Positions 1 through 7,949 of a stretch of 7,949 nucleotides of DNA are shown piece by piece. The notes beneath the pieces were generated by a model. The model was not told the DNA's origin and ran no database searches. It worked only from the letters and a program-made list of their open reading frames with translations. Position 1 is the first letter of the stretch. Each line of letters begins with the position of its first letter. This stretch comes from Candidatus Iainarchaeum sp. (lineage in GTDB: Archaea > Iainarchaeota > Iainarchaeia > Iainarchaeales > DTGL01): positions 1 through 7,949 of the forward strand of contig JAVYME010000043.1 in the NCBI GenBank assembly GCA_038736825.1, read 5' to 3'. A program made the position numbers and the translations under genes.

Positions 1-1832
1 AAAAAATATTGCTTGCTCATGCTCCAACCGGTCTTGGAAAAACCGCTGCAGTGTTATGCCCTTCCCTGACTTTTGCCTTGGAGGAAGGCAAAACCGTTTT
101 TTTCCTCACTCCAAAGATTTCCCAGCACGAAATTGCAGTGCAACTAGTGAAAGACTTGAACAAAAAGTTTGGCTTGCAAATTAAGGGCACTGACTTGGTT
201 GGAAGGAAATTCATGTGCTCTGATCCATATCTCTCTGAAGCAGACTCTGGTTCTTTTTATGAATTGTGCAAAAAGCGCAGGGAAAAAGAGGAATGCGAGT
301 TTTTTGCAAACATTGTCGGTTTTGATTCAAGGCAAAGGGAGATTGCAAGGCTTTACCAGGGCGAACTCAAAAGCAAGCATTCTGGAATATGGTCGCATTT
401 GGAGTTAAAGGAATGGTGTGAAAAGGCCTGCAATGGAAAAGGGTTTTGCGCTTACGAGTCAGCAATGTTGTTGGCAAGGGATTCAAGCATTATAATTGCA
501 GACTATTATCACTTGTTCAATCCCAGCATTCAATCAGTTATCCTTCAAAAAGCGAAGAAAAAACTGGAAAATTCCATTGTGGTTGTCGATGAAGCGCACA
601 ATCTTCCAGAAAGGGTGAGGGCTCTCTTGAGCAGCACTGTTTCGGTTTTTTCAATTGAAAAGGCAATGGAGGAATTAGAACGGCTTGGGCGAGAAGAGCA
701 CATTGAATCCCTTAAAGAGATAAGAAAGGCAGTAAAGGGCATTGCAAGGGAAAAACTTTCACAGAAAAACGAAGCAATTGTTTCAGAGGAAGCCCTTTCA
801 AAAAAAATAGAATCCGTTGGCGAAATCGAGGATATTGCAATCGAGTTCAGGGAACTGGGAGCAGAGTTTGTACAGTCTTTTCCCCAAGGGCGCTCCCACT
901 TAATATTGATTGCAAATTTTTTGGAAAAATGGCGCGAGCGAGAGCCTTCCTTTGTCCGCATTGTGCGAAAAAAGGAGAAAGGGGTTTCGCTTCAAGTGAA
1001 AGCACTGGATCCAGCAATTGTTTCAAGAAAGGTTTTTGAGGAAGCGCATTCCGCTGTTTTGATGAGTGGCACTCTATTGCCTGCAAAAATGTATGCAGAC
1101 CTTTTAGGAATTCCAAGTGAAAGGGCGGTAATGAAGGAATATTCTTCGCCTTTTCCCAAGGAAAACAAGCTTTCACTTGTTGTTCCTTCAGTGACTACAA
1201 AGTTTTCAGAGCGCAATCCAAGAGAGTTTGAAAAAATTGCTGAAATTGTTTCCAGCATTTCAAACAATATTCCGGGAAACAGTGCAGTGTTTTTTCCTTC
1301 CTTTGCAGTGCTTGAAGCAATTGCGCCCCTATTAGAGGGACGCCTTTCAAGGCCTGTGTTGAAGCAGAATGCTGAAATGGGTTCTTTTGAAAAGGCAGAG
1401 CTTTTGAAGAGGTTCAGGCAGCAAGGAAAGGGTTTTGGGGCAGTGCTTTTGGCAGTGGCTGCTGGTTCTTTTGCTGAAGGAATTGATTATTTGGGCGAGC
1501 AATTGCTGGGAGCAATAATTGTCGGCATTCCCTTGAATGAAATGGATTTGGAAACCCAGTGCCTTATAGATTATTATCAGGAAAAGTTTGGCTCTGGATG
1601 GCATTATGGTTATCTCTATCCAGCGGTTGCTCGTGCAATTCAGGCTTCAGGAAGGGTTATAAGGGATCGCTCTGACAGGGGAGTGGTGGTTTTTTTGGAC
1701 AAAAGGTATACTTGGAATAATTACAAAAAGTGTTTTCCAAGGGATTTTGAGGGAATTGTGACAGAGAATCCTGCAAAAACAGTGGCAAGGTTTTGGCAGG
1801 AGCGCTTTGAATTCAAGCCGGTTGTCGCTTGA
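1..1832 (+). CDS. xpd: XPD/Rad3-family (DinG-like) superfamily-2 DNA helicase with Fe-S cluster domain; 5' end cut by the window edge
   Basis: The reading frame is open back to nt 3 (..KI-LLAHAPTGLGKTAA), so the TTG at 9 is probably not the real start. Walker A is APTGLGKT (nt ~21-44) and the DEAH box is VVVDEAHNL (DEAH = 588-599). Clustered cysteines lie between motifs I and II (FMCSD, ELCKK, EECEF, WCEKACNGKGFCAYE), as expected for the 4Fe-4S domain. Also present: ADYYHLF, SGTL, GSFAEGIDY (motif V) and QASGRVIRD (motif VI). Stop TGA at 1830-1832. Confidence 0.9.
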   Translation, partial: KILLAHAPTGLGKTAAVLCPSLTFALEEGKTVFFLTPKISQHEIAVQLVKDLNKKFGLQIKGTDLVGRKFMCSDPYLSEADSGSFYELCKKRREKEECEFFANIVGFDSRQREIARLYQGELKSKHSGIWSHLELKEWCEKACNGKGFCAYESAMLLARDSSIIIADYYHLFNPSIQSVILQKAKKKLENSIVVVDEAHNLPERVRALLSSTVSVFSIEKAMEELERLGREEHIESLKEIRKAVKGIAREKLSQKNEAIVSEEALSKKIESVGEIEDIAIEFRELGAEFVQSFPQGRSHLILIANFLEKWREREPSFVRIVRKKEKGVSLQVKALDPAIVSRKVFEEAHSAVLMSGTLLPAKMYADLLGIPSERAVMKEYSSPFPKENKLSLVVPSVTTKFSERNPREFEKIAEIVSSISNNIPGNSAVFFPSFAVLEAIAPLLEGRLSRPVLKQNAEMGSFEKAELLKRFRQQGKGFGAVLLAVAAGSFAEGIDYLGEQLLGAIIVGIPLNEMDLETQCLIDYYQEKFGSGWHYGYLYPAVARAIQASGRVIRDRSDRGVVVFLDKRYTWNNYKKCFPRDFEGIVTENPAKTVARFWQERFEFKPVVA

Positions 1833-1841
1833 ACAATTGTT

Positions 1842-2105
1842 TCAGGTTTGTGATTGTTTTAGGCTTCTAATCATGTATATTGCGAATGCTATTGCAATCA
1901 AGGCTAGTGCAATTATTGCTCCAAAGTTTCCAGCATCCCCCAATCCAAAAAAGCCCGTGGGTTGTTCAAGGCAGTCCATGGGACAGTTTTGTGCGCTTTC
2001 ATTTTCACTGCAATAATTGTCTCCACAGGTTTCAATTGTTTGCGCGAATGCTCCCAGTGCAAGCAATAGAGTGAGGGAAAGCATTGTTGTTTTCCAAAAA
2101 ACCAT
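1842..2105 (-). CDS. small (87 aa) surface protein: signal peptide, 4-Cys mini-domain and C-terminal transmembrane anchor
   Basis: N-terminal MVFWKTTMLSLTLLLALGAFA|QT looks like a cleavable signal peptide (AFA). CGDNYCSENESAQNCPMDC (nt 1971-2027) follows. Then come PTGFFGLGDAGNF, a hydrophobic helix GAIIALALIAIAFAIYMI and a basic tail RSLKQSQT. A GAGGG SD-like element lies ~8 nt upstream of the ATG on the minus strand. The competing ORFs in other frames (1807..2016, 1880..2074, 1913..2140) lack such features. Confidence 0.65.
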   Translation of the reverse strand: MVFWKTTMLSLTLLLALGAFAQTIETCGDNYCSENESAQNCPMDCLEQPTGFFGLGDAGNFGAIIALALIAIAFAIYMIRSLKQSQT

Positions 2106-2192
2106 TTTTTAATCCCTCTCAAAAGTGAATTGTTGTACATTATAGGGTTGAACTAGTATTTAAGGATTGCCTGTTGCAATATTGTTTATTTT

Positions 2193-3116
2193 TTAAACTT
2201 TTTTTTTGTTTGCCAGAAACCAGTAAGCGCTTTCAGCGGCAATTGCGCCCTGTCCTGCTGCAACTATTGCTTGCGCAAATGTTCCAGTAATGTCGCCTGC
2301 TGCAAAAACGCCTTCAATGCTTGTGTTCATTTGCATGCCTGTTTCAATATAGCCTTTTTCTGAAAGCCTGCAACCAAGCATTTTTGCAATCCCGTTTTCA
2401 GGCAGCAATCCAATGTATACAAAAACGCCGTCAACTGCAATCTCTTTTTCTTTTCCGCTAACCCTGTCCCTGTATTTCAAGCCATTGGCTTTTTCGCTTC
2501 CAGTTATTTCAAAAACCTCAGCGTTTAATATTGTTTGCACTTTTTTTTCCTTTAATTTTTCTTCATAAATTTTATCACATTTCAGTTTGTCTCCGAATTC
2601 CAGCAAGAAAACCTTTTTGCAAATGCCTGCAAGGAACAATGCGTTCATTGCCCCAGAATTGCCTCCACCGATTACTGCAACTGTTTTTTCCCTGTAAAGC
2701 GGGCCATCACAAGTGGCACAATAATGGATTCCTTTTCCTTCAAGTTTTTCTGCGTTTTTTGCTTTTAGTTTTTTGTGGGTTGCACCTGAAGCAATGATTA
2801 TTGCTTTTGCCAGAATTTTTTCTCCATTGCCTGTTTCAAGCTCAAAGCCGTTCAATGTTTTTTTTGCTTTTTTTATTTCAATTCCTTCCAGTATTTTTCC
2901 CCCGATTCCTTCAAAGTGTTCTTGCATTTTTTGCGCCAATTCAAACCCTTTTATGGATTTAATGCCGGGATAGTTTTCAACCAGCACTGAATCAACAATG
3001 TTGCCGCCTGCAATTTTTTTTTCAAAAACCAGCACTTTCAATCCTTTTCTCAAAGCATAAATGCCTGCAGTTATTCCAGCAGGGCCTGCTCCTATTATTG
3101 CAATGTCTGTTTCCAT
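2193..3116 (-). CDS. trxB: thioredoxin-disulfide reductase, low-molecular-weight TrxR family (atypical pyridine-nucleotide site)
   Basis: FAD-binding DIAIIGAGPAG at the N-terminus. Redox-active CATC in HYCATCDG (codons at nt 2709-2720, minus strand). Second dinucleotide fold VAVIGGGNSG, and C-terminal GVFAAGD FAD motif. The 307-aa length fits the family. AGGTG SD sits 5 nt upstream of the ATG (AAAGGTGCAAAAATG on the minus strand). Confidence 0.93.
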   Translation of the reverse strand: METDIAIIGAGPAGITAGIYALRKGLKVLVFEKKIAGGNIVDSVLVENYPGIKSIKGFELAQKMQEHFEGIGGKILEGIEIKKAKKTLNGFELETGNGEKILAKAIIIASGATHKKLKAKNAEKLEGKGIHYCATCDGPLYREKTVAVIGGGNSGAMNALFLAGICKKVFLLEFGDKLKCDKIYEEKLKEKKVQTILNAEVFEITGSEKANGLKYRDRVSGKEKEIAVDGVFVYIGLLPENGIAKMLGCRLSEKGYIETGMQMNTSIEGVFAAGDITGTFAQAIVAAGQGAIAAESAYWFLANKKKV

Positions 3117-3313
3117 TTTTGCACCTTTTAATAATATTAAAGAAAACTTTAATAATGGCTAATTTTATTACAAAAGGCAGTGTGAAAGGTTTATATATTG
3201 GGAAACCATTAATATATGCTGAAATTTTGCCTTTTGGCTTCAAAAACAGCTTAAAGGAATGAATAAAAGGAGTTAGTGTATAAATTAATTCGCTCTTATG
3301 AAGGGGTGATTTT
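3117..3313. promoter_or_regulatory. divergent AT-rich intergenic region with candidate archaeal-type promoters for trxB (-) and the four-gene cluster (+)
   Basis: On the + strand, purine-rich GAAAGG (BRE-like) sits directly upstream of TTTATATA (3190-3197), a near-consensus archaeal TATA box. A second TATAAATTAA lies at ~3280-3289. On the minus strand, TAATAAAATTA (complement of ~3160-3170) lies ~45-55 nt upstream of the trxB ATG. No transcription start data, so assignment is tentative. Confidence 0.4.
3303..3310 (+). promoter_or_regulatory. Shine-Dalgarno-like site (GGGGTGAT) for the TTG-initiated gene at 3314
   Basis: AAGGGGTGAT, then a 3-nt spacer, then TTG at 3314. It is complementary to the conserved 16S 3' tail (anti-SD ...GGAUCACCUCC). 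Confidence 0.55.
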
Positions 3314-3889
3314 TTGGATAAGCGCTGGTTTAACCTTATAATTTTGACTGCAATAGTTTTGGCAGGAATTATTGCTTATTTTTTCTTTTTTCAAGCGCCA
3401 TCTTTCTCGCAAAGGCTTGAAGCAATGAAAGCCTCTTGGGTGAAAGCTGGCTTGGAAGCAAAACCCCTTCACTTGTCCTATGACAGGCTAAACCGCCTTT
3501 CACAAAAAGAATTATCCGATTTAAAGGCAGGCTTGGTTCAATTCACTGAATCTGAAAAAAATTCTGCTGCAAGAGAATTAGGCGAAGCATATGTTTCCCT
3601 TATAGACATCAGCATTTACAGGCAAAAAATGCTTGAAGTGCAGGAAGAGATTTCAAAAGCCGAAAACCCTTGCACTGTACTGCCAAAATACGATTTGTTG
3701 ACAGAATACAAGGAATCGCTTTTGGCTTCAACAGAAGAATATTTATCCAAAGTGGATTCCTTTGTTTCAAGCAATCCAGAGGCTGCAAGAGAAGCGCAAA
3801 TACAAGCAGGAAGCGGTGCTGAAGAACTAGCCTCCTCGGTTGCCAGGCATAAAACCCTTGTAGCACAATTAAAGGAGGCATGCAAATGA
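3314..3889 (+). CDS. N-terminally membrane-anchored, predominantly helical protein of unknown function (module 1, small subunit; paralog of 6113..6682)
   Basis: TTG start with SD. Single N-terminal hydrophobic helix WFNLIILTAIVLAGIIAYFFFF followed by QAPSF. The rest is charged and Ala/Leu/Glu/Lys-rich. It is collinear with the 6113..6682 product: FFQAPSF at residues 25-31 in both, C120 vs C119 in a C..LP.Y..L block, and C190 vs C188 near the C-terminus. Confidence 0.8.
   Translation: MDKRWFNLIILTAIVLAGIIAYFFFFQAPSFSQRLEAMKASWVKAGLEAKPLHLSYDRLNRLSQKELSDLKAGLVQFTESEKNSAARELGEAYVSLIDISIYRQKMLEVQEEISKAENPCTVLPKYDLLTEYKESLLASTEEYLSKVDSFVSSNPEAAREAQIQAGSGAEELASSVARHKTLVAQLKEACK
3874..3878 (+). promoter_or_regulatory. 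Shine-Dalgarno GGAGG embedded in the last codons of the upstream gene, serving the ATG at 3886
   Basis: AAG GAG GCA TGC AAA TGA. GGAGG ends 7 nt before ATG 3886-3888, which overlaps the stop TGA 3887-3889 (ATGA). Confidence 0.7.
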
Positions 3890-6087
3890 ACACCAAAAGC
3901 CTTCTCGCAATCCTTTTCCTTTCCCTGCTTTTCTCTTCAACAAACGCTTTTGTTTTGAGAACCACAGCCGGCTATCAAATCTTGGACAGAGATGCTCTTT
4001 ACAATGATTCAGTGCAACGTGATGATACAAGACTGGCGCAAGGAACGCTTTTCGCAAAAGCAGGCACAAAACTTTACACTTTGAATCCAAGGCATAAAGC
4101 AGACGGAAAAGCCTTACTGGAAACAACCCCAAAAGTTTTAGTGAATAAAAGCCTTTTGGGAATAAGCGGCACAGGACAGTATTCCTTTGAATTGGATGCA
4201 ATAGAACCAACAACCTATTTGCGCGGTCCAGCTGACCAAATAAGAGGCAGGTGCTCTGACCGCTGTGACGGGCCAAAAGTAAGCCTTACAGTAAAAGATG
4301 ACGGGGGTTACACTCAAGTGGCAGCAAGCAATTTCATCGAGGAAGGCAGAGAAATGATTGCCGGCGATTACAAGTACAAAATCACCAAAATTATTGTTCC
4401 AGAATACAAGGAAACCTGGCTTAAGGTTGGAGGCGACAACCAAACATGGTATTTGGTTTTAGGGCAAACCGGCGTAATGTCTGGACTAACAGAGGCTACA
4501 CCAAAAGACATTATAGTGGAGTTTTGCGTTGCCAAAAGGAATGGCGCTGGCTGGAGCAATTGCTATTATGACAATTCTGGTTCACTAACAGGAGAACTGA
4601 CAATAGGGGAAAGCACTCCAGGCACTGGAATGCAACCGCCTGGCTCGCCAACAGAAATCGGGCAACAAATAGAAGAAGCAACACAAACCGCAGCAGAACA
4701 AGCTGAAGCAGCACAAGGCTCAACACAAGTCACAAGTGGAAAAATTCCCAGCGAAGATGAAGAGCTTGCCAAGTGCACTGCAGACCTTCAAAAGAGTGAA
4801 ACCCTGCTTGTTGCAAAAACAAGGTTCAAGTACGATAGGGCAATAGGTTATCCGCCAGGTGAAACAGGATGGAATGAATTTGTAGCTGATGAAATCCAAG
4901 AAAAAAAGAGTTTCAAGATTGACATGACGGGAGTTGGTTATAGAGATGCTGGCAAAGGGCTTTACGAGTTCTATCTTCAAGGCTTCCATCCAGAACTAAA
5001 AAAATTTGATGGAACTATATCCAAAAAACCAGCATTTGCAACATATGGAACAAGGGATGGCGCGCAAATTTTATGCGGGCATTTCATTGGATTGAACGAA
5101 GAAATGAGTTGCAGTCCAAGAGACGAAATAAAGCCACAGGATGTTATTTACAAGATTTACAAATTCGAAGGGCCTTTTTTCGAACAACCAAGTGAAGGAA
5201 AAAGAGAAATTTTAATGAAAGGGCCACACTGTTATGATGTATGGGCTTATTATATGGTTAAATTCAGGATGGATACAACGCCAAGTGGAGGCCACGAGTG
5301 GTGGATGAAAACAGTTGAAGAAGTGCAAAACTATGCTGAAAGCAAGAAAAGAGGCTATAATCTCATTGTAAATGTTGTTGAAGAGATTGAATACAATTCT
5401 CAACCGATTTCAGGCGCAAAAGTGGTTGCAACAACCACTATTGAAGGAGAAAGTGTTAGGATTGAAGCCAATACAGGTGAGGACGGAAAAGCCAAGCTTG
5501 TGGTTCCAATAAATGCAACAATAACGGTTGTTGCAAGCAAAACAAATTATGTGGATTCAAGCATTATTGTACCACCATTTTCCAGTACAAAAGAGGTAAC
5601 AATTGCCCTAAAAAGGAATCTTTACAATTTAAAGGTTGCCTTTGCAAGGGATGACTTTTGGACTTTGTACTACAGGTATGCACCACAACACCATGGTGAT
5701 CCAACAACACCGGGCGTTAACACTGCAGACAAAGCGTTCCTTGACTCGCATGTTCCAACAAAGGAACACTCAGACTATGTTTACAGTGTTGCAGACAAGT
5801 TTTTGGCTTTAAAAACAAAGCCTTGCGATGATCCTTCTGGAGAAACAATTCCAAGCAAGGTTAGAACCGATTTTCAGCACCTAACAATCAAGGACACCCG
5901 CCAAGGCCATGAAAATCACGATGTAAGGCTTTACAATGTCCTTGAATTTGAAAACTTGAAACTGGACAGCTATTATTATGCTTGTTATTCTCGCACAATT
6001 GACGGAGTGAAAAAAACAAGAGAGATAAAATGGCATATCAAAATTAATGGAGTGCTTGAAGAGCCAGATCCGCCTAGAGATATTTGA
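3886..6087 (+). CDS. large secreted protein of unknown function (module 1, large subunit) with an internal carboxypeptidase-regulatory-like beta-sandwich segment
   Basis: The longest ORF begins at ATG 3880, but that start is only 1 nt from the GGAGG. ATG 3886 has a 7-nt spacer and an ATGA overlap, so it is preferred. Signal peptide MNTKSLLAILFLSLLFSSTNA|FV. Ten cysteines in the mature part (an even number, compatible with disulfides). A Pro/Gly/Thr/Gln/Glu/Ala-rich linker (GESTPGTGMQPPGSPTEIGQQIEEATQTAAEQAEAAQGSTQ, nt ~4609-4730) separates the N- and C-terminal regions. Residues NLIVNVVEE..QPISGAKVVA..TGEDGKAKLVVP..ATITVVASKTNYVD..VTIALKR (nt ~5359-5616) fit the CarboxypepD_reg / Ig-like pattern. 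No TM anchor at the C-terminus. Confidence 0.85.
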   Translation: MNTKSLLAILFLSLLFSSTNAFVLRTTAGYQILDRDALYNDSVQRDDTRLAQGTLFAKAGTKLYTLNPRHKADGKALLETTPKVLVNKSLLGISGTGQYSFELDAIEPTTYLRGPADQIRGRCSDRCDGPKVSLTVKDDGGYTQVAASNFIEEGREMIAGDYKYKITKIIVPEYKETWLKVGGDNQTWYLVLGQTGVMSGLTEATPKDIIVEFCVAKRNGAGWSNCYYDNSGSLTGELTIGESTPGTGMQPPGSPTEIGQQIEEATQTAAEQAEAAQGSTQVTSGKIPSEDEELAKCTADLQKSETLLVAKTRFKYDRAIGYPPGETGWNEFVADEIQEKKSFKIDMTGVGYRDAGKGLYEFYLQGFHPELKKFDGTISKKPAFATYGTRDGAQILCGHFIGLNEEMSCSPRDEIKPQDVIYKIYKFEGPFFEQPSEGKREILMKGPHCYDVWAYYMVKFRMDTTPSGGHEWWMKTVEEVQNYAESKKRGYNLIVNVVEEIEYNSQPISGAKVVATTTIEGESVRIEANTGEDGKAKLVVPINATITVVASKTNYVDSSIIVPPFSSTKEVTIALKRNLYNLKVAFARDDFWTLYYRYAPQHHGDPTTPGVNTADKAFLDSHVPTKEHSDYVYSVADKFLALKTKPCDDPSGETIPSKVRTDFQHLTIKDTRQGHENHDVRLYNVLEFENLKLDSYYYACYSRTIDGVKKTREIKWHIKINGVLEEPDPPRDI

Positions 6088-6112: not shown

Positions 6113-6682
6113 ATGAAAAAAAACCAAAAAATCGCTTTAATCGCAATAATCCTTTTGGTTGTTATAATCGCGGTTTACCTGCTTTTCTTTCAAGCGCCAT
6201 CCTTTGAAAAAGAATACGAGCGCATGAGCCTTGCATGGAAAAACAATGGGTTGAAAGAGGAAAGATTGCACGCTTCAGAGACTGTTTTTTCCCTTGATTC
6301 AGAGAAAATCGAGGACATTCGCTCCGAAATATCCTCCTTTTCTTCTTCTCCGAATCCCGCAATCAAGGACCTTTCAACAACCTATCTTTTGTTCCTTGAA
6401 AGCGCAAAAATAGCCTCCGAGATTTCCAGTATGAGCGAAACCCTTGCTGGTTCTCAGCAAGGCCTATGCGAAAGCCTTCCAGCTTACGAACGCCTTGGCA
6501 AAAAATTTTCAGAACTTGAAGAAAAAAAGGAAGCCTACCTTAAAGCCACAAACGCTTTTGTTTCAAAATATCCAAAGGAAGCTGAATCCATTTCCCTGAA
6601 AGCAAACACTGCCGGTTTGCAGGGAGCTTCTTCAAGCAAATTCGTTGAACTGCTTGAAGTCGCCAAGGAGGTGTGCTCATGA
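6113..6682 (+). CDS. N-terminally membrane-anchored helical protein of unknown function (module 2, small subunit; paralog of 3314..3889)
   Basis: ATG start preceded by GGAGCGTGAT (6100-6109). TM helix IALIAIILLVVIIAVYLLFF followed by QAPSF. Shares the W..(x)GL....LH.S, C.(x)LP.Y..L, YL......FVS..P..A and KE.C-terminus blocks with the 3314..3889 product. Confidence 0.85.
   Translation: MKKNQKIALIAIILLVVIIAVYLLFFQAPSFEKEYERMSLAWKNNGLKEERLHASETVFSLDSEKIEDIRSEISSFSSSPNPAIKDLSTTYLLFLESAKIASEISSMSETLAGSQQGLCESLPAYERLGKKFSELEEKKEAYLKATNAFVSKYPKEAESISLKANTAGLQGASSSKFVELLEVAKEVCS
6667..6671 (+). promoter_or_regulatory. Shine-Dalgarno GGAGG(TG) embedded in the last codons of the upstream gene, serving the ATG at 6679
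   Basis: AAG GAG GTG TGC TCA TGA. GGAGG ends 7 nt before ATG 6679-6681, which overlaps the stop TGA 6680-6682. The geometry is the same as at 3874-3889. Confidence 0.7.
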
Positions 6683-7949
6683 AAAAAGCCTTTTTTGCAA
6701 TAATCGCAATCATGTTGCTGGCATTCACAGGACAGGCATTTGCGTACGACAAGCTGGATGCACTTGTAGACCAAGGAAGGATAAAAATAAACATACTAAT
6801 TGATCCAACCCCTTGGGATCAAAAGGTTTCATATCAGTGGAACAATGTTGTGCTTCAAACACCAGCGCAAATAAACGTGAACGATCCTGCTGTTTCAGCC
6901 ACGGGTTCTTTTTCATTTTACAGGGCATCACATTCTGTTGCACGTAAAACCACGCCAGACCGCTCTGAACTTAACCCAAGGCACAATATTGGCTTAGAAT
7001 ATTATTCGCTCAAATATGAAATACAGCCAAATTTTGTTAGAGTTGAGCCAGTGCCAGGCAGAAGCCAAGACACCCAATTCATTTACAAATTCACTATATT
7101 AAAAGGGGTTGGCGCAAACCTTACCCAATGCCATTCAACTGGCGAATTCAAGCTTTTACTTCCAGACACTCCAACTGAAGAGGACGCTCCTGCTAGAGGA
7201 ACAGAAGACGAAATGTTGCCAGGCTCAAGGGGATATAAGTATGTGACAGTTGATGCCTTAAGCCAGTGCGGCATAAGATTCCAAGTTTACAGAACCCATT
7301 CTTGGTTTGGTGACCATGTTTGGTTTCTAAGGTTTGATTTTTCAAGAAATGAAATAATAAACTATTTTTTGCCACAACTCTTGCAAAACACCGCTGATGC
7401 CTCGCTAAAACAATCCATTACTGAAATAATCGGAGCACAATTACCACCAACTAAGACTTGCACTCCAAAAACTTGTGCTGAAATGGGTTGGGAGTGCGGT
7501 TCTGGTGTTGAGGACAGGTGCAATACAACAATTCAATGCCAAGCTTGCCCGAGTGGCAAGACTTGCAACAATTCAATCCATAAATGTGAGACATTCAGCC
7601 CACCCTGTGTTCCAAAAACCTGTTCAGAGCTTGGTTGGCAGTGTGGCACTGGTGATGATGGTTGCGGTGGAACCTTGAATTGCGGAGATTGCCCGACAGG
7701 CCAAAAATGCAATATTGGAACCCACAAATGTTGCACTCCAAAAACTTGTGCTGAAATGGGTTGGGAGTGCGGTTCCGGCATTGAGTCTGGATGCAATAAT
7801 ACAATTAATTGCGGTAATTGCACTGGTGGCAAAACATGTAATACTGAAACTCACAAATGCGTAAGCACTTGTGTTCCAAAAACCTGTTCAGAGCTTGGTT
7901 GGCAGTGTGGCACTGGTGATGATGGTTGCGGTGGAACCTTGAATTGCGG
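6679..7949 (+). CDS. secreted protein (module 2, large subunit) with a unique N-terminal domain and a C-terminal array of 8-Cys repeats; 3' end runs off the window
   Basis: Not in the supplied ORF track because it has no stop in the window. I translated frame 1 from 6679 by hand and found no stop through 7949 (423 full codons). Signal peptide MKKAFFAIIAIMLLAFTGQAFA|YDK. A ~235-aa N-terminal region is followed from residue ~261 by repeated modules CxPKTCxExGWxCGxG....C...(I/L)xCxxCxxGxxCxxxxHKC. Confidence 0.85.
   Translation, partial: MKKAFFAIIAIMLLAFTGQAFAYDKLDALVDQGRIKINILIDPTPWDQKVSYQWNNVVLQTPAQINVNDPAVSATGSFSFYRASHSVARKTTPDRSELNPRHNIGLEYYSLKYEIQPNFVRVEPVPGRSQDTQFIYKFTILKGVGANLTQCHSTGEFKLLLPDTPTEEDAPARGTEDEMLPGSRGYKYVTVDALSQCGIRFQVYRTHSWFGDHVWFLRFDFSRNEIINYFLPQLLQNTADASLKQSITEIIGAQLPPTKTCTPKTCAEMGWECGSGVEDRCNTTIQCQACPSGKTCNNSIHKCETFSPPCVPKTCSELGWQCGTGDDGCGGTLNCGDCPTGQKCNIGTHKCCTPKTCAEMGWECGSGIESGCNNTINCGNCTGGKTCNTETHKCVSTCVPKTCSELGWQCGTGDDGCGGTLNC
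7459..7949 (+). repeat. in-frame tandem coding repeat: alternating A/B types of an 8-cysteine ~42-49-aa module (A1 7459-7605, B1 7606-7731, A2 7732-7869, B2 7870->7949)
   Basis: 7606-7685 and 7870-7949 are identical over all 80 nt (offset 264 nt). 7458-7502 and 7731-7775 are identical over 45 nt (offset 273 nt) and then diverge. Each module has eight Cys at conserved spacing. Confidence 0.92.

Follow-up and report, generated by a model that had tools for sequence, protein, structure and literature searches.

Little is known of how DPANN archaea, which are either uncultivated or difficult to grow, build their envelopes and make contact with other cells. The DNA analyzed here, hereafter the window, is one whole contig of 7949 nucleotides (nt) from a metagenome-assembled genome (MAG) of Candidatus Diapherotrites, in which four tightly packed genes, A1, B1, A2, and B2, follow one another on the + strand. 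The gene of interest, B1, encodes a protein of 733 amino acid residues (aa) that is identical to the NCBI "hypothetical protein QXK06_05730" (P0001; 100% identity and coverage) of Candidatus Diapherotrites (Iainarchaeota, DPANN). We found that B1 is a real gene for a secreted, non-enzymatic, probable surface protein, and that it directly follows the gene of a putative membrane anchor, A1. The features of the cluster, with the basis of each assignment in parentheses, are:

3314-3889, + strand: A1, a 191-aa type-II (signal-anchor) membrane protein with a TTG start, putative anchor (alignment; A-family hidden Markov model, HMM)
3872-3889, + strand: A1-B1 coupling junction, with AAGGAGG at 3872-3878 and ATGA at 3886-3889 (read from the sequence)
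3886-6087, + strand: B1, the 733-aa target (annotation and homolog N-termini)
3886-3948, + strand: B1 signal peptide, aa 1-21 (alignment, hydropathy)
3949-4569, + strand: B1 N domain, aa 22-228, beta-rich (model confidence, pLDDT, about 80; HMM)
4570-4803, + strand: B1 acidic low-complexity linker, aa 229-306 (composition, pLDDT)
4804-5355, + strand: B1 middle (M) domain, aa 307-490, beta-rich with one helix (model, HMM)
5356-5613, + strand: B1 transthyretin-like / CarboxypepD_reg-like beta-sandwich, aa 491-576 (Pfam, Foldseek)
5614-6087, + strand: B1 C-terminal alpha/beta domain (CTD), aa 577-733, with the stop codon (pLDDT about 85-93; hhalign, HMM)
6113-6682, + strand: A2, a 189-aa paralog of A1, second putative anchor (27% identity, E 6e-15)
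6679-7949, + strand: B2, the other secreted cargo, truncated where the contig ends (signal peptide, Cys-rich repeats)

Secretion of B1

The open reading frame (ORF) counted from the first ATG (3880..6087) would encode 735 aa, and the 733-aa form starts at ATG 3886, which overlaps the stop codon of A1. We prefer ATG 3886 because the annotation and the homolog N-termini agree with it and because it lies 7 nt after AAGGAGG, from which ATG 3880 is only 1 nt away. The N-terminus, MNTK-SLLAILFLSLLF-SSTNA followed by Phe22, is composed of an n-region with Lys4, an h-region (residues 5-16), and a c-region (SSTNA). Ala21 and Phe22 are invariant among the aligned B1 homologs, and cleavage is predicted after Ala21. 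The basic n-region, the hydrophobic h-region, the small residues at -3 and -1, and the absence of a later transmembrane segment are all those of a type I (Sec) signal, and the Kyte-Doolittle maximum of B1 (2.14, residues 6-24) coincides with this signal peptide. We looked for a cryptic transmembrane segment or a C-terminal anchor in B1 and found none; the best other 19-residue Kyte-Doolittle window reaches 1.09 (residue 538, in the beta-sandwich), and the C-terminus (...EEPDPPRDI) lacks the hydrophobic tail of PGF-CTERM-type anchoring. The mature protein has an isoelectric point (pI) of 5.5 and a mass of 79.5 kDa and contains four sequons. A preliminary description of this DNA, made from the letters alone, had proposed a 733-aa protein starting at 3886 with a signal peptide and no C-terminal anchor, and all of this is borne out. 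The same description had named two findings that would speak against it, a cryptic anchor and homology of the whole protein to an enzyme or S-layer family; both were looked for, and neither was found.

Domain Architecture of B1

Two structure models of B1 were obtained, one from a 5-sequence alignment (pLDDT 59) and the other from a 16-sequence alignment (alignment A2; pLDDT 77.9). In the better model, the linker is the sole disordered part, and it separates the N domain of ~207 aa from a C-terminal region of ~440 aa, as expected from the bipartite layout proposed earlier. The N domain carries the motifs C123-x3-C127-x-GPK, VPEYKETWLKV, and QTWYL, together with Cys214 and Cys226, and it occurs alone in three other secreted proteins, P0016, P0017, and P0020, which align with the family profile at positions 2-240 only. 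In addition, the ortholog P0003 in locus L001 (8429-11293) has 954 aa and a tandemly duplicated N domain (N-HMM matches at ORF residues 31-243 and 277-469); this duplication shows gain and loss of the N module.

The linker (aa 229-306; ...ESTPGTGMQPPGSPTEIGQQIEEATQTAAEQAEAAQGSTQ...) has a pI of 4.05 and a pLDDT below 50 over residues 229-289, and it encloses the low-complexity segment noted previously at nt ~4609-4730. Two helices are predicted in it, at residues 255-276 and 290-302. Cys297 is conserved, and the pattern I-x-Q-x-I-x-x-N-T-Q...T-D...Q is kept in part. The coding region of the linker contains an imperfect 15-nt tandem repeat at 4675-4717 (GAAGCAGCACAAGCC, 2.9 copies), which encodes the EQAEAAQ stretch.

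The M domain, which contains the motifs YKIYKFEGPFF and KGPHCYDVWAYY and the residues Cys397, Cys409, and Cys449, resembles the N domain. The N-HMM matches M with domain E-values of 7.9e-5 (L003) and 9e-3 (window), the M-HMM matches N with 1.1e-4 (L008), and the likeness can be read directly in YKITKIIVPEYKET of N and YKIYKFEGPFFEQ of M. By these profile matches, N and M are distant internal repeats of each other.

The transthyretin-like sandwich is the sole recognizable domain of B1. Pfam CarboxypepD_reg (PF13620) matches residues 504-575 with E=1e-3 and a score of 19.8 bits, which falls short of the gathering cut-off of 32.3, and the same family is matched in 6/16 B1 family members at E<=0.01, with a best E of 1.9e-7. 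In the second model, the sandwich has a pLDDT of about 90, and Foldseek superimposes residues 493-575 on 5aq0_B and 3e8v with TM-scores of 0.67-0.77 and root-mean-square deviations (rmsd) of 2.9-4.4 Å, which identifies it as a 7-stranded beta-sandwich of the transthyretin-like type. The preliminary description had singled out nt 5359-5616 as the one familiar segment, and the family Pfam matches and Foldseek place the sandwich there, at nt 5356-5613. PF13620 has the same fold as this sandwich, but the sandwich makes up only 12% of B1, and the likeness says nothing specific on function. In the model, the CTD (residues 577-727) consists of four short helices followed by a beta-sheet, with the motifs DDFW and YYAC and the Cys647/Cys700 pair.

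No family in the Pfam, NCBIfam, or PHROG scans covers N, M, or the CTD. When B1, A1, A2, and the B2 of the window were scanned against the three collections, the sub-threshold CarboxypepD_reg match was the only one, and the NCBIfam scan of B1 gave no family at E<=1. Both B1 models were compared by Foldseek with the PDB, and the better model with BFVD, using the whole multidomain models as queries. These searches, which had been proposed together with the structure prediction, returned only local transthyretin/Ig-like matches; outside the sandwich there was no convincing neighbor in the PDB or BFVD, and the global TM-score was 0.20 or less.

Conserved Cysteines and Absence of Catalytic Motifs

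All ten cysteines of B1 are invariant in its eight close family members. The distant subfamilies lose them in sets, namely 397+409, 647+700, and {123, 127, 214, 226, 297, 449}. Such set-wise loss points to disulfide partners and therefore to an extracellular, oxidised protein, and it implies that B1 is probably braced by about five disulfides.

The motifs HExxH, GxSxG, and GDSL are absent from B1, and no enzyme homolog was found by Pfam, NCBIfam, the PDB sequence search, or Foldseek; the earlier statement that B1 has no HExxH, Ser-protease, or glycosidase signature thus agrees with the motif scan (HExxH, GxSxG) and with the homology searches. His448-Cys449-x-Asp451, which at first looks invariant, was considered as a catalytic triad and rejected. 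The three residues are absent in subfamily III, and their role is therefore structural, not catalytic.

Relatives of B1

A word-indexed search of 5.8 billion proteins returned four B1 homologs with 28-45% identity, and the profile version of the same search added no further members. Searching 1.84 billion representatives exhaustively with an HMM yielded eight full-length close members and about ten distant relatives of ~700 aa with the same layout (P0018, P0019, P0021-24, P0026, and P0062). Where named, the relatives come from Iainarchaeota MAGs. Among GTDB species representatives, B1 occurs in only two genomes, one of them Candidatus Iainarchaeum, and two metagenome contig scans found none. 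Judged by these matches, B1 belongs to a small lineage-specific family and is not a strict orphan, so that the label "orphan" given to it in the preliminary description has to be dropped. Matches of the family profile that cover only the sandwich extend to more than 100 unrelated multidomain surface proteins.

The Putative Anchor Family and the Coupled Junctions

A1 begins with MDKRW and contains a transmembrane segment at about residues 8-29, a conserved Pro just after it, and a mainly helical ectodomain of ~160 aa. Members of the A family share this topology, a basic N-terminus, one transmembrane segment, and an ectodomain, and their alignment (alignment A3) shows invariant Trp42, Leu52, Phe77, Cys120, Tyr143, Phe150, Pro155, and a penultimate Cys190. 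The helical hydrophobic periodicity ratio of the ectodomain is 1.74; beta controls gave 0.42-0.56, and helical controls gave about 2.5. Signal peptidase I does not cut when Pro stands at +1, so that the conserved Pro after the transmembrane segment of the A family would prevent cleavage by this enzyme. The A family has no Pfam, NCBIfam, or PDB match, and its profile found nothing in the PDB below E 0.08. We also considered for the A family a class III signal like that of type IV pilins and rejected it, since no (K/R)-G/A cleavage motif precedes the hydrophobic stretch. The TTG start of A1 is preceded by GGGGTGA and is kept in L001 and L004.

We examined ten distinct loci, namely the window, L001-L005, L007, L008, L012, and L013. 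An A-family gene, recognized by the A-family HMM, lies directly upstream of B1 in 10/10 of them, even where the B1 relative is only 18-25% identical. Among the loci whose flanks can be seen, most show a divergent thioredoxin reductase (TrxR) gene followed by A1-B1-A2-B2; L007 and L012 are without A2. The B1 locus is chromosomal and stays beside the genes for TrxR, the XPD helicase, and the pentose-phosphate enzymes across deeply diverged genomes.

The junction between A1 and B1 was read in eight loci (the window, L001-L005, L007, and L008). In 8/8, the stop codon of A1 overlaps the start codon of B1 as (A/G)TGA, and the whole junction has the form AAGG(A/G)GG-N7-(A/G)TGA, in which the Shine-Dalgarno sequence lies within the A1 codons for the C-terminal LKE(A/V)CK (LKEACK in the window). 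The A2-B2 junction of the window has the same design, with AAGGAGG at 6665-6671 and ATGA at 6679-6682 (AAGGAGGTGTGCTCATGA). A stop-start overlap with an embedded Shine-Dalgarno sequence is the design of translational coupling and favors stoichiometric co-production. In both junctions of the window (3872-3878 and 6665-6671), the C-terminal K-E-(A/V)-C codons conserved in the anchor spell the AAGGAGG of the cargo gene, so that the peptide motif of the anchor and the ribosome-binding site of the cargo constrain each other. For the same genome pairs, the identity is 52-66% for A1, 32-48% for B1, and 54-72% for TrxR; A1 is clearly the better conserved partner. The same trend has been reported for Sulfolobales, in which SlaB is better conserved than SlaA (PMC10903991).

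A viral or mobile-element origin of B1, for example as a receptor-binding or fusion protein, is suggested by the Foldseek matches in BFVD, which include tail-fibre and baseplate proteins with E-values down to 5e-6. Save for short matches to a single beta-sandwich, these matches have TM-scores of 0.16 or less and reflect generic beta-sandwich repeats. B1 has no PHROG match, none of its relatives lies on the viral contigs of IMG/VR, and the same housekeeping neighbors accompany it in deeply diverged genomes. Such an origin is effectively excluded by this deep synteny and by the lack of B1 in viral collections, and we give it almost no weight.

A Second Pair and a Shared C-Terminal Domain

The link between B1 and B2 is seen only through profiles and the complete B2 orthologs; BLASTP of B1 against the truncated B2 of the window was not significant. 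By hhalign, the B1 CTD resembles the C-terminus of B2 with a probability of 77% and E 2e-5. The B1-derived CTD HMM matches the B2 of L008 with E 1.3e-14 and a stand-alone protein of L002, made up of a signal peptide and a CTD, with E 2.9e-18, and the complete B2 orthologs end in a B1-type CTD. After iteration, the ~150-aa CTD was found in 18 ORFs of the ten loci, always at the C-terminus, and 15/18 of these ORFs directly follow an A gene. In L002, a third module precedes A1 at 985-3208 and consists of u1 (227 aa, the signal-peptide and CTD protein), u2 (the third A-family paralog, of 194 aa), and u3 (a secreted protein of 325 aa).

In the window, B2 starts with a signal peptide and a novel N region, after which at least four Cys-rich repeats of ~46 aa run from nt 7459. 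The repeats, C[TV]PKTC[AS]E[ML]GW[EQ]CG[ST]G...HKC, alternate between two types, and the 423 aa present contain 31 Cys. The B2 orthologs in L002, L004, and L005 match PF11617 (MopE-like metal-binding motif), with a best E of 5.9e-18. The duplicated pair, the N/M repeats, the ten conserved cysteines, and the CTD common to B2 all go beyond the preliminary description.

Comparison with Known Surface Systems

In two PDB sequence searches, with B1 profiles of 5 and 16 sequences, the sole match was SlaB (8qox_B), in the sandwich domain, with E 2.5e-4. SlaB is also the top Foldseek match of B1 (E 1e-4), with a global TM-score of 0.14-0.20. The SlaA/SlaB system of Sulfolobales (PDB 8QOX; PMC10903991) resembles the A1-B1 pair in that a secreted beta-rich outer protein is combined with a helical stalk that is anchored in the membrane, encoded by its own gene, and co-expressed, and in that the outer protein is more variable than the anchor. 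The two components are encoded together in the case of A1 and B1 as well, which are adjacent in all loci examined. It could be, then, that B1 is a lattice-forming S-layer protein and A1 its membrane stalk, and the acidic pI and the size of mature B1 and the core, syntenic nature of its locus fit this proposal. The match to SlaB, however, covers one generic sandwich (B1 residues 493-575 on SlaB residues 132-221), and it falls on the anchor instead of the canopy protein SlaA. No SlaA chain was found among the PDB sequence matches at E<=10 or the top 50 Foldseek matches, and B1 matches none of the curated S-layer families (for example, TIGR01564/TIGR01567 of NCBIfam and the S-layer domains of Pfam). 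SlaB begins with beta-sandwich domains, followed toward the C-terminus by a long coiled coil and a final transmembrane segment (PMC10903991), whereas A1 has the opposite topology, with its transmembrane segment at the N-terminus, no beta-sandwich, and 191 instead of 475 aa. Compared with SlaA, B1 is half the size, cysteine-rich, and sequon-poor, and its ten conserved cysteines and only four sequons are atypical of S-layer proteins (criteria in 10.1101/2021.04.28.441871). Moreover, symmetric AlphaFold predictions list another protein for the phylum, the 1039-aa A0A2G9N319 of a Diapherotrites archaeon, as a lattice-forming S-layer protein (10.1101/2024.05.28.596244, Table S1). Because that preprint assigns the role to A0A2G9N319, which we set apart from B1 by its table entry, B1 is probably not the main S-layer protein, and we regard a lattice of B1 on A1 stalks as unlikely.

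Two further systems share single traits with the cluster. As in cohesin-dockerin and other modular display systems, a recurrent C-terminal module is found on secreted proteins beside dedicated membrane or scaffold partners. The differences are that there is no sequence similarity, that the type II cohesin 2b59_B aligns with a TM-score of 0.42 and an rmsd of 13.6 Å, and that the CTD, for which docking is putative, is an alpha/beta domain of ~150 aa and not a Ca-binding dockerin. Bacterial Ig-like adhesins (Big_1/invasin; pilins such as GBS52) are, like B1, secreted proteins made of successive beta-sandwich modules; Big_1 is matched in 3/16 and Invasin_D3 in 1/16 family members, and the Foldseek match to 3phs has an E of 1.5e-3. 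In contrast to such adhesins, B1 comes from an archaeal host and has no sortase/LPXTG signal or autotransporter anchor, and the matches are weak and partial (TM-score 0.12-0.31).

Proposed Role of B1

We propose, with a probability of roughly 0.5, that B1 is a structural or adhesive protein tethered to the membrane, at the cell surface, by the anchor A1. B1 would be exported by the Sec pathway, its signal peptide would be cut after Ala21, and the mature protein would fold outside the cell into N, the N-like M, the transthyretin-like sandwich, and the alpha/beta CTD, with about five disulfides. Through the overlapping stop and start codons, it would be produced in a fixed proportion with A1, which may retain it at the cell surface non-covalently. 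The docking element would most plausibly be the shared CTD, since no other module is shared by the cargos; alternatively, it may be the helical linker, which is conserved but predicted with low confidence and is the type of segment that becomes ordered upon binding. The fast-evolving beta domains would stay exposed as a structural or adhesive surface. A2 and B2 would form a second paralogous pair in the same operon that works by the same principle, with Cys-rich repeats on B2. The preliminary description had pointed to the upstream anchor protein as the partner of B1. The gene context and the coupled junctions strongly favor this, and the physical binding and the retention at the surface would follow from it.

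Several observations weigh against this proposal. The A1-B1 complex is deduced from gene context, and because the ten loci are orthologous, the A-B association represents only two to three independent events. A CTD occurs without an A gene directly upstream in L002 (u1), L005 (gene 6), and L012 (gene 3), and the B2 of L013 and u3 of L002 follow an A gene and have no detectable CTD. Furthermore, the conservation of the individual domains singles out no docking domain, and the CTD is no better conserved than the rest, with a mean pairwise identity of 0.34 against 0.33-0.39 for the other B1 domains. The A proteins could also be assembly or chaperone factors, with B released from the cell. In the fullest form of that alternative, B1 is a free exoprotein, such as a binding protein, a toxin-like factor, or an undetected hydrolase, and A1 acts only in its export, folding, or immunity. 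B1 has no anchor of its own, its three domains of unknown fold could hide an activity, and the MopE-like motifs in the B2 orthologs hint at ligand or metal capture. Nevertheless, neither a catalytic motif nor enzyme homology was found at any level, the His-Cys-Asp residues are not kept in distant members, and a stoichiometric complex is a better fit to the strict 1:1 coupling, in translation, of B1 to a membrane protein with a large ectodomain. We therefore consider free release rather doubtful.

Tethering of B1 by A1 can be extended to the cluster as a whole. In this extension, the cluster is an undescribed, Iainarchaeota-specific, modular anchor-cargo display, in which A stalks capture co-translated cargos via the shared CTD of ~150 aa; in its boldest version, the result is an outer protein coat. 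Different cargos would be swapped onto one docking module, the two novel "PEYKET" beta domains in B1 and the Cys-rich metal-binding repeats in B2. We advance this extension tentatively, as a possibility with the greater weight of doubt against it. None of the three protein families involved (N/M domain, CTD, and A stalk) has been described, and the placing of a secreted surface protein on a separately encoded membrane anchor is a known principle. If A does bind B via the CTD, this would be a new archaeal surface-tethering principle and would define these three as new domain families; if not, B1 stays an ordinary lineage-specific hypothetical exoprotein. The locus offers a conserved and testable candidate, namely two anchor-cargo pairs in which the domain borders are defined and for which disulfide partners and a docking domain can be suggested.

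Neighboring Genes

Three further genes of the window lie upstream of A1:

9-1832, + strand: XPD/Rad3 helicase, 5'-cut
1842-2105, - strand: 87-aa secreted/transmembrane mini-protein
2193-3116, - strand: thioredoxin reductase (TrxR)

Outside the window, the cluster region looks like a conserved cell-envelope island. Large secreted proteins follow the cluster on the opposite (-) strand in L001 (15913-20912), L005 (19068-22370), L007 (10389-15334), L008 (18038-19417), and L012 (4893-8901); most of these five loci encode two of them, of ~700-930 aa, and L008 encodes one of 459 aa. They give faint Ig-like matches (FixG_C, Cep192_D3/D4, HYDIN-like, and NPCBM_assoc). L001 also encodes, at 13336-15817, two secreted proteins of 408 and 410 aa that end in AGC(D/S)PCQS(V/I)(V/I)GCLAC(L/I)D, one of which bears an N/M-type domain (M-HMM E 2.7e-10). 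In L005, a pair of genes with a 4-nt overlap lies on the - strand between the TrxR and pentose-phosphate genes (5123-8271) and encodes proteins of 163 aa and 886 aa, the latter with a faint DUF7743 match; the A-family HMM does not match the 163-aa protein.

The 87-aa protein of the window consists of a signal peptide, a 4-Cys motif (CGDxxCx8-9NCxxDC), QPTGFFGLGDAGN, a transmembrane helix, and a basic tail. Its end, PTGFF followed by the transmembrane helix and basic residues, resembles an archaeosortase-type (PGF-CTERM-like) sorting signal, and the NCBIfam models do not match it. A counterpart of 83 aa is present in L001, with a local alignment score of 239. The divergent intergenic region between TrxR and A1 (3117-3313) is AT-rich and contains two TATA-like sequences, TTTATATATT at ~3190 and TATAAATT at ~3281.

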